A stretch of 64,000 nucleotides of DNA from Flaccisagitta enflata (GCA_965153355.1 OZ231126.1:4960001-5024000); one strand, 5' to 3'. Positions 6,646 through 12,616 are shown, counted from the first letter of the stretch. Notes: generated by a model from the letters alone, not told the origin. Translations and numbers: made by a program.

Positions 6646-8255
6646 TCAATAATGCTGCAGGGTGTAGGAGGTAAAGCCGTCACTCGGGAAGGGGTTGTCG
6701 GCGATTGTGGCGCGACAAAGCGGGCACGTCCGCTCCTGATCAAACCACTTGGAAACACACTCTTTGCAGAATATATGTTTGCAGCTGAGTTTGAAGGGCT
6801 CCTTGAATTCGTCATGGCAAATGGAACAGTTATGTTCCAACCTTGTGACTCCGTTGGATTTCAAATTGATTGGATTGACACATGATGATTGCATATCAAG
6901 GCCGGCCCTTGCTTGATTTTGACCAGTAATCAATGTTGTGACCCCACCTGAAATTGAATTGATAGGATTGACACATGATGATTGGCTGTTGAGGCTAGAC
7001 TGTGCTCTACTTTGTCTAGTAATCAATGTTGTGACCCCGCTTGAAGTTGAATTGATAAGATTGACGTGTGATGATTGGCTGTTGAGGCTTGCCTGTGCTT
7101 GACTTTGTCTAGGAATCAATGTTGTGACCCCGCTTGAAATTGAATTGATAGGATTGACGTGTGTTGATTGGCTGTTAAGGCTTGCCTGTGCTCGACTTTT
7201 ACTAGTAATCAATTCTTTGACCTTGAAGCAAGCAAGGATAAAGCCAGCAAGCAAGGGAGCACTTAACAGTCCTATCACTATGACTACAATTAGGGTATTG
7301 ATGTTTTTAGTTCTTCTGTTGCAAATGACAGACGGAGTACTGCGCCACACGCCATCCGTGTGACACGTGAGATCCCCGCCCGCGGAACAACAGTAATCTC
7401 CCTTCTTTATTATCGTATTTCGGTCTCTACTTTCTTTAGCAACACATGATGAACCCACAGGGCTGGAGTACTTTGTGTCACACTCCCAAAAGCATCCTTT
7501 GACATATGGTTTCGCGCCGCATTCAACAATCTCGCAGTGAAGGTTTTGACTCTGCCAAATGCCTCCGCCAGTGAACATGGATTGTGAATCTGCTTGGCAA
7601 ACGACTTCTCCTCCAACAATCCACCGATCCCGATTGGCCGCCGCTCGACATCGAGACCCAAGGGAACTACCATTAGTACAATTCACTAAGCTAAAAGCGA
7701 AACAAGTTAAGTTAAAATTATAATGATAATCTGACACTAAAGACTTAGGTGGCGGTGGCCAAGGGCACTCGATCATACCGCATGTCACATGGCCGTCCCA
7801 AGAGCCCTTTTCATTACAAACAAATTGGCCTTTGGCATAGTGTCCTTCCGGTACATTGATGGAGCAAACTGTGCCCGAGAATAGAGTGTTTGAGGAACAA
7901 GAATAATGAACGGCCACTACGTTAGAAGAATCTCGCAGATTCTGACACGTATTAGGATATGGTATTGAATGAATTGGCGGACAAATTCGTCGACAGGCTG
8001 TTTCCTGTCTCATTTTCCAATTGGATGTGTTTCCTGGGCCAAATTCAATGGTGCATTGGAACTCAACTTGATCTCCATTATTGGCTGGACGGAATCCTGG
8101 TTTACAGTCTCTCTTGACAATGTCGAGGATATGGACAACTTCTGAGGAGTGGTTGGAAGAGTTTGTCAATGACAAGGGATTGATGGTTTGGAGCGAGTTG
8201 ATCAGAGGATGCAGGTCATTCATTAGGCAGCCGCAAACCTGAGCCGATTTAGTGC
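6646..8255 (-). CDS. Exon 4: ~4 sushi/CCP-like modules, TM helix (~7225-7293), 4x31-aa repeats, C-terminal C3HC4 RING (RNFT1/2-like)
   Basis: Acceptor tctcacag|GC is in frame with the 525-aa ORF. Sushi-like motifs GTVCSI..C..GSWDG..C and GSSC..LTCHTDGVW..C. TM LIVVIVIGLLSAPLLAGFILACF followed by KVK. RING CSICHDEFKEPFKLSCKHIFCKECVSKWFDQERTCPLCR. Confidence 0.9.
6838..7209 (-). repeat. Coding tandem repeat, 4 x 93 bp (31 aa) in the cytoplasmic tail
   Basis: aatcaatgttgtgacccc recurs at ~6928, 7021 and 7114. Unit approx. ITRQSRAQASLNSQSSHVNPINSISSGVTTL. Confidence 0.9.
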
Positions 8256-8317
8256 CTGTGAGATCAAGAACCAGGAGGAGGAAGATGTAAAGGATTTAAA
8301 TAATATTTACAAAAAAA

Positions 8318-8819
8318 AGAAGAAGAAGAAGAAGAAGAAGAAGAAGAAGAAGAAGAAGAAGAAGAAGAAGAAGAAGAAGAAGAAGAAGAAGAAGAAGAAG
8401 AAGAAGAAGAAAAAAAAAGATGAAGAAGAAGAAGAAGAAGAAGAAGAAGAAGATTATTTACCAAACAAATACATCATTGCCTAAAAAAGATTAAACAACA
8501 ACAACAACAACAACAACAACAACAACAACAACAACAACAACAACAACAACAACAACAACAACAACAACAACAACAACAACAACAACAACAACACAAACAA
8601 CAACAACAACAACAACAACAACAACAACAACAACAACAACAACAACAACAACAACAACAACAACAACAACAACAACAACAACAACAACAACAACAACGAC
8701 AATAACAACAACATAAACAACAAAAACAACAAAACAACAACAACAACAACAACAACAACAACAACAACCACAACCACAACCACAACAACAACAACAACAA
8801 CAACAACAACAACAACAAC
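8318..8819. repeat. (GAA)n and (CAA)n microsatellites filling most of intron 3
   Basis: Direct inspection. Confidence 0.95.
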
Positions 8820-8850
8820 ATTAATAAAAACAAAAATAATCTTTCTTCAC

Positions 8851-9091
8851 CTTTTTCCACCTCCAATACATCGATAATGGACTCAAAACAAGCGCAACTT
8901 CCATTCTTGAAAAGGGTCCAGCCTTTAGCCACTGAACTCAAGGCTCCGGATTCGCAGCTTTGTCTACAGCCATGTGGAGTCGCTACGTCAATTTGCGATG
9001 TTGAATGGAGAAAAGTCGAATTTCCAACAAAAGACACTCCATCAGTTGGGATCGAACATTGAACCACCGTGCCAGAGAGAGTGGCACCATC
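8851..9091 (-). CDS. Exon 3: PAN/Apple-like domain
   Basis: Acceptor ttttccccacag|GAT, phase 0. Cys pattern C...G...TPHGCRQSC...GWT...GSCACF. Donor AAAG|GTGAAG, phase 1, compatible with exon 4. Confidence 0.75.
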
Positions 9092-9406
9092 CTGTGGGGA
9101 AAAGGAGAGAGAGAGAGTTTATACATGTACTTGCTCAAGAACAAACTGTCTTGGTAACATCAGACTGATAGCCGAGGATTGACCTAATCCTAAGGGCATT
9201 TCAGCATTTTATAAAAATGTTTTGTTAATGTTTTGTTCCTTTTTGACGTAGTAAAGTTTCAAATAATCCACTTATCAAATGTAATCTACCAAAAGCAAAT
9301 TTGAACAAACAATTTTAACCCGTATGGGTAACACCAGTCCACATGGCGGGAACAGCCATATTGGCACACCCATAATTTAATATACTGAGAGGCGCCTCAT
9401 GAAATA

Positions 9407-10205: not shown

Positions 10206-10799
10206 ACAATAAATTTTTCAAGCCACCGGGTAAAAATAGCCAGCTCATGCATGCCATATATGTATGATTAAAGAGAGAGAGAGAGAGAGAGAGAGAGAGA
10301 GAGAGAGAGAGAGAGAGAGAGAGAGAGAGAGAGAGAGAGAGAGAGACAGAGACAGAGAGAGAGAGAGAGAGAGAGAGAGAGAGACAGAGAGAGAGAGAGA
10401 GAGAGACGCTTGAAACCCCCTTTGAAACATCAAATTTTATTTTTGAAGCACGCTGTCTTCATGAGTGTAGTGATGTTCTCTAATAAATACAGCTGAACCC
10501 TGCTCCATCTGGTACTGGAATGATAAGCTATATAAGTATAAGCGCCTCAGTGGAAGCGTCAGAATTGAAAGCTTGAAAATCATAAGTGCAATATTTTCTT
10601 ATGCGCGAGAATGCTACGCGTCCCCTACCAGATGAAAACGGACCCGCCTTTAATGGAATGCCGCCTTCAAGAACAGATACCAACTTATCATCCCTTCTTT
10701 TCTTTTATTTCCAATATTGGCTAGAGCAGAATGCCACCTATAACAGATAAAATCTGCAGATCCCCTTGACAGTAAACGGAATAATCAAAGCGCACCAAC

Positions 10800-11086
10800 C
10801 TTGAGTTCTACGGCGGGTATCGGGCCAATGATGTCGTGGGAGAGCAGCCCTTTAACCGTTGTCCAGGAATTGAATATCAACGAGATATTCCTGACGGCGC
10901 CAACAAATCTATTATCAGCGTCAAATTTCATTCCGTCAAAGTCGTTCACTTTTTGGCCAAGGACGAGTTTTCCACCAACGCAAAGCGGCATTGGATTTAG
11001 ATACTCGCTCATAATCAGCTCCCCGTTGACAGTGAGAATAGTCCAACCAGTACGACCGTTAAAAATCCAGTGCGCAGTCACCCATT
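10800..11086 (-). CDS. Exon 2: C-terminal half of pentraxin domain
   Basis: Pyrimidine tract + CCAG acceptor. Splicing to exon 1 gives FPIGEWVTAHW. GGKLVLGQKVNDFDGMKFDADNRFVG matches the pentraxin GGxLxLGQEQD...FDxxxxFVG pattern. Donor AAG|GTTGGT, phase 0. Confidence 0.85.
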
Positions 11087-11115
11087 CTGGGTTGACAGAG
11101 GAAAGAGAAAAGCTT

Positions 11116-11821
11116 AACAGGTCGCCCAAGGGCAATATGTGGTCAGCGATACCCGTTGCCCTGCTTTAAGTGATTGTGAATTGGAGTGAGGGGAAGCAGG
11201 GCAGCGGCCCCAAAGGGGACGAAGTCCTGTAGAACACAGGGGGACTTTCGTTCGTCCTGCCTGAAGAAGTGGATGAGTTGCTATAGAGGGCTTACTAAAG
11301 GCCTTCAAGTGCCTAAACTGAGGTCTAAGACGTCTGATGTAACGCCTCAGAATGCCATCGGAAGCTTGAGAGGGCTGACTTGATGCTTGAGAGAGCTGGA
11401 TTAAGGCTTGAAAGGTCAGATGACTGATTTGAAGCCTGAGAGCAATAAATTGAGGCTTAGATAGCTGATTTAAGGCCTGTGAGGCTTGATTTGAGGCCTG
11501 AGAGGCCTAATTTGAGGCCTGGGAAGCCTGAGAGGCCTGAGAGGCCAGGTTTGAGGCCTGAAAATTTGGAGTTGAGGCCTGAGAAGCCTAATTTGAGGCC
11601 TGAGAGGTTGGATCTGAGGCCTGAGAGGCCGGATTTGAGGCCTGAGAGGCTGGATTTGAGGCCTGAGAGGCCAGATTTGAGGCCTGAGAGGCCAGATTTG
11701 AGGCCTGAGGGGCCTGGTGAGGGGGGGACTAACGAACGGACGAACAAACGAACGAACGGACGAACGAAAGTCCCCCTGTGTTCTACAGGACTTCGTCCCC
11801 TTCGGGGCCGCTGCCCAAAAA
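11116..11821 (-). mobile_element. Helentron-type element family B in intron 1
   Basis: Reverse complement of the 3965-4470 structure with about 12-15 copies of a 21-bp repeat (GAGGCCTGAGAGGCCAGATTT-like). Confidence 0.75.
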
Positions 11822-12225
11822 TTGAAGGCGAGTGATGATGATTTCAGCACCAGGACATATAATCTGTACTCTGTAGGATTAGTGGATGTAGAACTTGTGG
11901 AACTTCCTCCAACAAACTGTGCAATGCTTGTCTTGGATTGTCACTGACAGTTGTAATAGGCAAGAATTAAAACGACTGCCATCAAATTGTGAATCCCAGG
12001 AGTTGTTCGTTGTACTTAAACTGGTTAAGCATGATACACTGGGTAGTGCGACATGTCTGAAGCGCTTAGACATCTCTCTCTCTCTCTCTCTCTCTCTCTC
12101 TCTCTCTCTCTCTCTCTCTCTCTCTCTCTCTCTCACACACACACACACACACACACACACACACACACACACACACACACACACACACACACACACACAC
12201 ACACAGGATGGCACAGACTACATAC

Positions 12226-12616
12226 CTCCAATTGGAAATGTAGTATTTTTGTGTATTGAAGCCTTATGACCACCCATTAGCAGCGTGTAAGCTTTGTCTT
12301 TGGCCGATCCTGGAAGCCCAAGCGCCAATTCATTGGGCTGCTGCGGGACGGCGTAAGATAGGAAGAAAGGATAAGGCGTTGGCTGCGTGATTAGCAAGTC
12401 AACCGTCAACCATAACCACTGAACGTTCAAAGGCATTATCGGGTGGATGATCACGTGAGCATTCTGCTGGTGAGCCGGGAAATGGATTTCATAGCCAGGA
12501 GAGGAGGCAAAGGTCGAGGAGGAGGAGGAGGAGGAGGAGGGAGATGAAGAGACCGACAATGATAAAAGTAGAATAGAGATAACGACTGCCTGCGCGATAC
12601 TCTTATTAGTCGCCAT
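12226..12616 (-). CDS. Exon 1 of pentraxin-PAN-sushi-TM-RING gene: signal peptide, poly-Ser linker, N-terminal half of pentraxin domain
   Basis: ATG in AAAATGG context. Hydrophobic leader AQAVVISILLLSLSVSS. FLSYAVPQQPNEL resembles the neuronal-pentraxin motif FSYAVPGQANE. Donor GGAG|GTATGT, phase 1 (391 nt). Confidence 0.85.

Follow-up and report, generated by a model that had tools for sequence, protein, structure and literature searches.

The minus strand of the window (the whole 64,000-nucleotide stretch of DNA analysed) carries, between positions 6646 and 12616, an 842-codon frame in which a C3HC4 RING finger and the 22-residue tail behind it are, judged by sequence comparison, a module of the RNFT1/RNFT2 type, here newly seen joined to a single-pass protein with a large cysteine-rich ectodomain. 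The locus is probably a real, lineage-restricted gene encoding a domain-shuffled, single-pass RING ligase. The RNFT character of the module was missed in the first-pass annotation of this DNA, and the combination of a cysteine-rich, lectin-like outer part with such a RING is, by sequence searching, nearly without relatives in public data. The features of the locus, in the order of the minus strand, are as follows.

12650..12657, minus strand: TATA-like box TATATAAA, 41 nt upstream of the ATG, read from the sequence
12226..12616, minus strand: exon 1; ATG, signal-peptide-like hydrophobic stretch, Ser run, about 90 residues; donor GAG/GTATGT
11087..12225, minus strand: intron 1, 1139 nt; filled with microsatellites and a dispersed repeat
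10800..11086, minus strand: exon 2, entered in phase 1 and left in phase 0; pentraxin-like second half
9092..10799, minus strand: intron 2, 1708 nt; (GA)n tract and transposon-like ORF fragments
8851..9091, minus strand: exon 3; 80-residue unit whose 5 Cys include C-x3-C and C-x-C pairs
8256..8850, minus strand: intron 3, 595 nt; simple repeats nearly throughout
6646..8255, minus strand: exon 4, 1610 nt with the stop; Cys-rich modules, membrane segment, repeats, RING and tail
7321..8106, minus strand: three to four cysteine-rich modules, residues 357-618, from a Cys map and an alignment of three modules
7228..7296, minus strand: single membrane segment, residues 627-649; Kyte-Doolittle means of 2.0-2.8 in a 19-residue window
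6829..7200, minus strand: four 31-residue Ser/Thr/Asn/Gln-rich repeats, predicted cytoplasmic linker
6715..6828, minus strand: C3HC4 RING finger, residues 783-820; six Pfam RING models above cut-off
6649..6714, minus strand: 22-residue C-terminal tail of RNFT type, ending DG-x-TS-x4-Q-x-Y
6281..6677, minus strand: tandem duplication, period 230 nt, taking in the final 9 codons, the stop and the beginning of the 3' flank

The four exons were joined through GT-AG borders in phases 1/0/1 into an uninterrupted frame of 2529 nt (842 codons), with its stop at 6646-6648 and an in-frame stop 10 codons upstream of the ATG; the borders, the matching phases and the open frame of the four-exon gene proposed in the first-pass annotation were all re-found. 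Each of the donors (GAG/GTATGT, AAG/GTTGGT and AAG/GTGAAG) matches 5 of 7 consensus positions, a level reached by 8 of the 481 GT dinucleotides between 6000 and 13000, three of these eight being the proposed donors. The acceptors fall in the top 0.8%, 0.3% and 6.6% of the 378 AG of the region, that of exon 3 being the best-ranked, and all six splice sites lie within the top 0.3-6.6% of GT/AG dinucleotides across this 7-kb region. Between 6000 and 13000, no further donor/acceptor pair was seen that was both strong and associated with coding-like sequence. In each of exons 1 to 3 the proposed frame outscored the other two in codon usage; measured against null ORFs, the score was in the top 3.6% for exon 3, in the top 6.4% for exon 2, and average for exon 1 (48% of 110 null ORFs equally high). 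Exon 4 lacks an in-frame start that would bring its own signal sequence, although 23 of the 31 ectodomain cysteines are encoded in it, together with 6 of the 10 N-x-S/T sites of the ectodomain; upstream secretory exons are therefore required.

The N-terminus of exon 1 has a signal-peptide-like hydrophobic stretch by hydropathy and a run of Ser whose codons form a (TCC)n tract; some 90 further residues of the exon were taken for the first half of a domain of lectin/pentraxin type. This domain is split by intron 1, and exons 1 and 2 were scanned singly with profiles. Exon 1 gave no Pfam or PDB match (Pfam re-scanned at E<=10); its ESM features fell with galectin-like, sialidase and Laminin_G_3 clusters at 0.86-0.92, which serves as a lead only. 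Exon 2 alone reached E 0.037 with Pfam Pentaxin (PF00354), at 14.2 bits against a cut-off of 25 and over positions 94-153 of the 194 in the profile, and it had six matches in the PDB, the best four of which were CRP (two), neuronal pentraxin-2 and SAP (E 0.017-0.65). Pentraxins carry the signature H-x-C-x-[ST]-W-x-[ST], which includes a disulfide Cys; at the start of exon 2 the His is present and the Cys and the [ST]-W are absent, and residues 40-226 hold one Cys only. Of the pentraxin domain that had been annotated here, the second half (exon 2) has a weak resemblance to pentraxins and the first half (exon 1) matches nothing; the pentraxin identity is weak.

Two other ectodomain labels, PAN for exon 3 and about four sushi modules for the cysteine-rich part of exon 4, proved to be pattern readings unsupported by profiles. 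Exon 3 had no Pfam match at E<=10 and no PDB match of relevance, and its AF2 model (pLDDT 46) was too poor for a fold search; both structure predictions, at pLDDT 32 and 46, were unusable. Sushi/CCP modules have about 60 residues, four framework cysteines with a Trp between the third and fourth, and short linkers. The modules of exon 4 have a regular cysteine framework, CCP/sushi-like ends (C...G-x-W...C) and inter-module linkers of 3-4 residues; three of them, with 6-8 Cys each, end in C-x3-15-G-x-W-x4-7-C and align poorly with one another (20-29% identity). Pfam Sushi (PF00084) matched neither exon 4 at E<=1 nor the four single modules or the 271-aa block at E<=10, and a PDB search with the 274-aa cysteine-rich stretch was without a match. 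A profile of three modules yielded four PDB matches, three of them CCP-containing chains (MASP-2, C2), at E 0.38-2.1 only, and ESM features placed the modules with Sushi clusters at 0.80-0.83, again a lead only.

The rest of the annotated architecture, namely a signal peptide, a single membrane segment, four 31-residue repeats and a RING, was recovered. Hydropathy gave the N-terminal hydrophobic stretch and one internal segment of 23 residues (627-649), which is conserved in the relative P0001 described below. The linker corresponds to a 93-nt repeat (TRF: 3.8 copies, 85% matches, 6864-7213), of which P0001 has two copies fewer. RING fingers follow the spacing C-x2-C-x9-39-C-x1-3-H-x2-3-C-x2-C-x4-48-C-x2-C, and that of the 842-aa protein agrees with it, the zinc ligands being present at all eight positions (residues 783, 786, 798, H800, 803, 806, 817 and 820). 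Scores were above cut-off for zf-RING_2 (40.5 bits, cut-off 27.3, E 3.4e-10), zf-C3HC4 (38.5 bits, cut-off 21) and four more Pfam models, and PDB RING domains matched down to E 1.4e-8. The RING also carries an Ile after the first Cys, a central-helix Trp, Pro-x-Cys and an Arg directly after the last Cys, residues which we take to have roles in E2-dependent ubiquitin transfer, the activity itself being predicted.

HMMER alignments with RNFT-type proteins reach the last residue of the query. Among the 150 best matches, 111 have a C3HC4 RING whose end lies within 24 residues of the C-terminus, 94 share the motif at the end of the tail, and 64 have a module of 60 residues, exactly the length of that in the query. 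The RING and tail of the query are on average 55% identical (maximum 68%) to RNFT-type modules, which are 61 +/- 7% identical among themselves; the source names of two matches are RNFT2-like (P0004) and RNFT2 (P0013). With RING and tail read as an RNFT1/2-type module, the gene would therefore be a chimera of the end of an RNFT-like gene and an unrelated ectodomain. Outside the RING and tail, one relative only was found among 1.84 billion representative proteins (P0001, 196 aa, 87% identical), and no full-length relative. P0001 has the same fusion with the same junction order (module end, membrane segment, repeats, RING, tail) and differs from the query at 2 of the 60 residues of RING and tail. 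It covers the exon 4 part alone, beginning with a Met inside the last cysteine-rich module on a 908-nt contig, and may therefore be truncated or broken upstream. The first-pass annotation knew of no described protein with this architecture, and nothing comparable was found in these searches.

Our preferred reading, to which we give about an even chance, is a real, lineage-restricted gene for a chimeric type I membrane protein with an RNFT-type RING, located at the cell surface or in endosomes rather than in the ER. The signal peptide would lead about 600 residues into the lumen or cell exterior, forming an outer part in which a pentraxin/lectin-like domain, itself divergent, is accompanied by a small cysteine-rich unit and by three to four CCP-like modules; the cytoplasmic part would consist of the 4 x 31-residue Ser/Thr-rich linker, the C3HC4 RING and the C-terminal tail typical of RNFT1/RNFT2. 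Descent from an RNFT-like gene would apply to the catalytic end and not to the outer part or the membrane segment. At the cytoplasmic face of the membrane the RING would recruit an E2 enzyme and ubiquitinate its own protein, or membrane proteins bound by the outer part, so marking them for endocytosis or degradation, as with RNF43/ZNRF3. We infer that the protein is expressed with this topology and location, binds a ligand, has ligase activity and functions as a receptor; its location and ligand are conjectural.

It is unlikely, in our estimate, that exon 4 is a real gene part below a wrong or incomplete upstream model, with one or more of exons 1 to 3 unjoined, with other start exons, or with a separate secreted pentraxin-like gene upstream. 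Such an error would fit an exon 1 that matches nothing and has an average codon score, a sole relative that covers exon 4 alone, and a region whose 481 GT and 378 AG always allow some in-frame path to be drawn. The chosen sites, however, are not arbitrary (three of the eight best donors, and top acceptors), exon 4 needs an upstream signal peptide, and the region offers no other strong splice pair with coding-like sequence. Exon 2 holds a second half only (profile 94-153) and therefore calls for another exon before it, for which exon 1 would serve, and intron 3 is nearly all simple repeat, so that exon 3 is the nearest candidate upstream of exon 4. Less probable again is a young, non-functional chimeric locus, an unexpressed or decaying product of duplication and rearrangement whose frame is open by recency. 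The surroundings are very repeat-rich, being mostly microsatellites, a satellite array and retroelement remains, and the tandem duplication runs across the stop codon (6677-6511 against 6447-6281, 96.4% match over 167 nt). A canonical poly(A) signal is not near at hand (AATAAA was not found within 1.5 kb downstream of the stop, and ATTAAA first occurs about 1.47 kb beyond it); the sole relative is one fragment, itself possibly truncated, and the number of linker repeats varies between these two copies. Against a decaying locus stand 842 codons open over four exons with good splice sites, eight of eight RING ligands kept, a regular cysteine framework, and a RING and tail that are the best conserved part (58/60 residues identical to P0001, against 87% overall), as would be expected if the catalytic module were under selection.

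The same gene model might instead have an ER site like that of RNFT1, its lectin-like cysteine-rich part picking glycoproteins in the lumen for ER-associated degradation, with no surface receptor; this is about as improbable as a non-functional locus. Lumen and cell exterior are topologically equal, and the catalytic module is of RNFT type. Against an ER site, no signal resembling the familiar C-terminal di-lysine or KDEL-like motifs was seen in the protein sequence, and the CCP-like array is large, as is typical of surface and secreted proteins. The query has one internal hydrophobic segment, as against at least two in 65 of 66 long RNFT-type matches. In passages of PMC4971459, human RNFT1 is described as autoubiquitinated in a RING-dependent manner, which favours the preferred reading of a ligase. 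It is also described there as partly localised to the ER, as rising under ER stress and as giving protection that depends on the RING, which would suit an ER site; a multi-membrane core of 4 or more segments, absent here, is named as the common feature of ERAD ligases. A receptor at the cell surface or in endosomes is favoured over the ER because the outer part would be glycosylated and disulfide-rich and the RNFT membrane core is absent. That an invertebrate lineage has made a new class of receptor-type ubiquitin ligase, by joining a lectin-like (pentraxin and CCP-like) recognition ectodomain to the catalytic end of an ER ligase, RNFT, is a tentative and rather doubtful proposition. If it were so, binding of a carbohydrate, microbial or self ligand on the outside would directly cause ubiquitination inside, with no adaptor proteins between, and the protein would serve innate immunity or adhesion as a receptor whose ubiquitin output is built in.

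Among known systems, SVEP1/polydom-type and CSMD-type extracellular proteins have a pentraxin domain adjoining CCP modules and are not known to carry a RING. The query resembles them in having a pentraxin-like domain beside a CCP-like cysteine-rich array, both identities being weak here, and protein and PDB searches gave no sequence match to them. With RNFT1 and RNFT2 it shares a C3HC4 RING placed at the extreme C-terminal end, with a 22-residue tail of the same type behind it, in a module of 60 residues; those proteins have multiple membrane segments and lack a large luminal domain, whereas the query has a signal peptide, one membrane segment and an outer part of about 600 cysteine-rich residues. 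HMMER similarity to RNFT-type proteins starts about 15-20 residues before the RING at most, P0001 and a few low-identity matches excepted; the latter (P0076, P0103, P0136, P0137 and P0147) begin 35-75 residues upstream, inside the repeat linker. The protein was not filed in the RNFT family because homology is limited to the RING-tail module, and membership was rejected on the absent multi-pass core and the single internal hydrophobic segment. The PA-TM-RING proteins (RNF43/ZNRF3 and GRAIL/Goliath) are alike in signal peptide, ectodomain, one membrane segment and cytoplasmic RING, as judged here by hydropathy. They differ in having a protease-associated domain, for which no Pfam match was obtained in any exon at E<=1 or in the re-scanned parts at E<=10, and in a RING-H2, where the query has a C3HC4 RING of apparent RNFT descent with Cys803, not His, as fifth ligand; ZNRF3 was a weak PDB RING match only (E 3.7e-4), and membership of this family was likewise rejected on the ectodomain and the fifth ligand. 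In the passages of PMC3861454 and PMC3905715 that treat them, ZNRF3 and RNF43 ubiquitinate Frizzled receptors and their ectodomain is bound by R-spondin. The present protein would share this layout and, probably, its logic.

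All four minus-strand exons of the candidate gene (12616-12226, 11086-10800, 9091-8851, and 8255-6646) were found to be open and, as the first-pass annotation had proposed, could be joined through GT-AG borders with exon phases 1, 0, and 1 into an uninterrupted spliced frame of 2529 nt (842 codons and a stop). The intron borders were GAG/GTATGT...CCCAG/A, AAG/GTTGGT...CACAG/G, and AAG/GTGAAG...CACAG/G. Because an in-frame path alone proves little where 481 GT and 378 AG dinucleotides are available, all GT and AG sites in the 6000-13000 interval were scored by a crude count of matches to the consensus. 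The three proposed donors each matched 5 of 7 positions, a level reached by 8 of the 481 GT sites, three of which are the proposed donors, and the proposed acceptors fell in the top 0.8%, 0.3%, and 6.6% of the same count. A TATA-like box (TATATAAA) was located 41 nt upstream of the ATG, which is preceded by an in-frame stop. With exon 4 as the training set, a codon-usage score preferred the proposed frame in exons 1, 2, and 3. When ranked against 110 comparable ORFs from the rest of the window, exon 2 was placed in the top 6.4%, exon 3 in the top 3.6%, and exon 1 at 48%; codon usage thus lends mild support to exons 2 and 3 and none to exon 1. Given the donor and acceptor ranks, the upstream box and stop, and the codon-usage scores, the putative four-exon model is, on sequence signals, well above chance. 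No canonical poly(A) signal was found within about 1.4 kb of the gene end. A tandem duplication with a period of 230 nt (6281-6677, minus strand) overlaps the stop codon: the final 9 codons, the stop, and the beginning of the 3' flank recur over 167 nt at 96.4%. Intron 3 (8296-8850) consists almost entirely of simple repeats, with poly-purine, (CAA)n-like, and (GTT)n-like runs.

The window has introns of the GT-AG type and very abundant microsatellites; with the satellite array and retroelement remains listed below and the sources of the nearest named relatives of the RING (given further on), this points to an animal genome, probably that of an invertebrate. The following features were recorded in the introns and around the gene:

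15074-22576, satellite array with an 81-nt unit, approximately 94 copies in total, 89 of them in the main block (86% matches)
48286-49563 (plus strand) and 55119-58035 (minus strand), remains of BEL/Pao-type LTR retroelements, split over several frames
3825-4405, 11114-11940, 24998-25645, 38001-38417, and 45373-45843, dispersed repeat whose translation contains the recurring AAAPKGTKSCRTQG and SRATGIADHILPLGDLL
59108-61123, minus strand, open frame of 671 codons with a Gln-rich middle and no Pfam match at E<=0.01
9407-9658, minus strand, ORF of 83 codons inside intron 2, resembling the end of a retroelement polyprotein

The satellite has a strong GC/AT skew and produces spurious ORFs of considerable length on each strand. 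The BEL/Pao remains were recognized from a gag-like ORF with DUF1759 (E 1.6e-12), from an integrase core (E 2e-4), and from the Pao peptidase A17 (E 4e-4), and the 671-codon frame beside them may be gag-like or a host gene. Each copy of the dispersed repeat adjoins a short-period tandem array, and one copy lies within intron 1; the repeat probably represents a SINE- or MITE-like element that has a microsatellite as its tail.

Several parts of the first-pass annotation were borne out. Six Pfam RING models scored above cut-off (best E 3.4e-10), many solved RING domains matched, and all eight C3HC4 ligands are kept, so that the predicted domain is unambiguously a RING. Hydropathy gave a signal-like N-terminal stretch and one strong internal segment (residues 627-649), in agreement with the signal peptide and single membrane segment that had been assigned, and the linker described as four repeats of 31 residues was recovered as a 93-nt unit in 3.8 copies with 85% identity.

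The origin of this RING was a feature that the first-pass annotation had missed. An exhaustive HMMER search of 1.84 billion representative proteins with exon 4 as the query returned 4811 proteins at E<=0.001, just one of which (P0001, a 196-residue relative) was under 1e-30. Most of the other matches listed align with the final 60-80 residues only, up to the C-terminal residue. Among the best 150 of the 4811, in 111 at most 24 residues separate the end of a C3HC4 RING from the C-terminus, 94 share with the query a terminal DG-x-[TS]...[YFW] motif, and in 64 the module is exactly 60 residues long, as in the query. Where source names were given, they read 'RING finger and transmembrane domain-containing protein 2(-like)', and the nearest named relatives of the module were from a nemertean, a gastropod, and a psyllid. 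The query module is on average 55% identical to the others (maximum 68%), compared with 61 +/- 7% among the RNFT-type modules themselves. Of the module-bearing matches of at least 300 residues in the same best 150, 65 of 66 contain at least two hydrophobic segments, against a signal sequence and one membrane segment only in the gene model. The predicted protein therefore carries an RNFT-type module as its catalytic end, grafted onto a single-pass scaffold of unrelated origin.

P0001 is the product of a 908-nt contig and is 87% identical to the query. It spans the end of the last cysteine-rich module, the membrane segment, a linker with two fewer repeats, the RING, and the tail, and the RING and tail are the best conserved part (58 of 60 residues). 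Since the same graft is present in P0001, the predicted fusion is older than the split between the two copies. Word-index protein searches found no homologue of exon 4, of its residues 40-330, or, among longer proteins at E<=10, of exon 2. Of 43 pattern matches from a scan of metagenome contigs, none was confirmed, and tblastn found no paralogue of the gene within the 64-kb window. In the protein and metagenome collections searched, no protein had a matching ectodomain or a matching whole architecture, nor was the architecture met among the matches listed in a literature search of titles and abstract openings, whose coverage is incomplete.

The labels given to the outer part, which contains 31 Cys and 10 N-x-S/T sites, fared less well. 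For the pentraxin assignment, exon 2 alone matched the Pfam Pentaxin profile at E 0.037 (profile positions 94-153 of 194, under the gathering score), and its four best PDB matches were two CRPs, neuronal pentraxin-2, and SAP (E 0.017-0.65). A pentraxin-like domain would be split by an intron, so that exon 1 would have to provide the first half. Exon 1 had no Pfam match at E<=10 and no PDB sequence match, and the pentraxin signature, with its Cys, is absent from the model; pentraxin is kept as a weak label. Language-model features of exon 1 lie near galectin-like, sialidase, and Laminin_G_3 clusters (0.86-0.92), which would be compatible with a jelly-roll of lectin type and is no more than a lead. 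The PAN label for exon 3 was not sustained, with no Pfam match (E<=10), no PDB match, and an AlphaFold2 model made with no alignment that was unusable (mean pLDDT 46.2). The approximately four sushi domains likewise had no backing from profiles: single modules had no Sushi match in Pfam at E<=10, the cysteine-rich block of exon 4 had no PDB sequence match, and fold prediction of its 319-residue ectodomain part using AlphaFold2 without an alignment failed (mean pLDDT 32.3). Three modules finish in C...G-x-W...C with four-residue linkers between them, their language-model features fall in Sushi clusters at 0.80-0.83, and three of the four PDB matches of a three-module profile were MASP-2 and C2 CCP chains at non-significant E values (0.38-2.1). 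As only the pattern was left after profiles and fold prediction gave nothing, these putative domains are best called CCP-like cysteine-rich modules.

A signal peptide and one membrane segment would place the RING on the cytoplasmic side and the cysteine-rich part outside the cell or in the lumen. Ligase activity of the predicted protein is likely, because all ligands are kept, as are the residues on which E2 engagement generally depends. The favoured site of action is the cell surface or the endosomes, since the protein lacks the RNFT membrane core and arrays of CCP-like modules are typical of surface proteins. That the protein works instead in the ER lumen is a live alternative. Human RNFT1 shows RING-dependent autoubiquitination and partial ER localisation, and four or more membrane segments are given for its family (PMC4971459).

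If the gene does join a lectin-like, cysteine-rich ectodomain to an RNFT-type RING, it would show that a multi-pass ER ligase can pass its catalytic end on to a different membrane scaffold, and it would be a clean instance of a gene born through domain shuffling whose donor family (RNFT) can be traced. Lineage-specific domain shuffles are frequent in invertebrate genomes, and RING ligases with one membrane pass and an ectodomain are known as a general kind; the traceable RNFT origin adds interest. Such a protein would also be a natural instance of the 'receptor plus ligase in one chain' principle, which is at present being engineered for the targeted degradation of surface proteins. To our knowledge, few membrane RING ligases combine a single pass with an outer domain that binds a ligand, and in the known animal ones (RNF43/ZNRF3 and the GRAIL family) this is always a PA domain. 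The closest working analogy is RNF43/ZNRF3, in which R-spondin is bound by the ectodomain and Frizzled is ubiquitinated by the RING (PMC3861454, PMC3905715). The predicted protein lies outside the RNF43/ZNRF3 family, as it has no PA domain and its RING is not a RING-H2.
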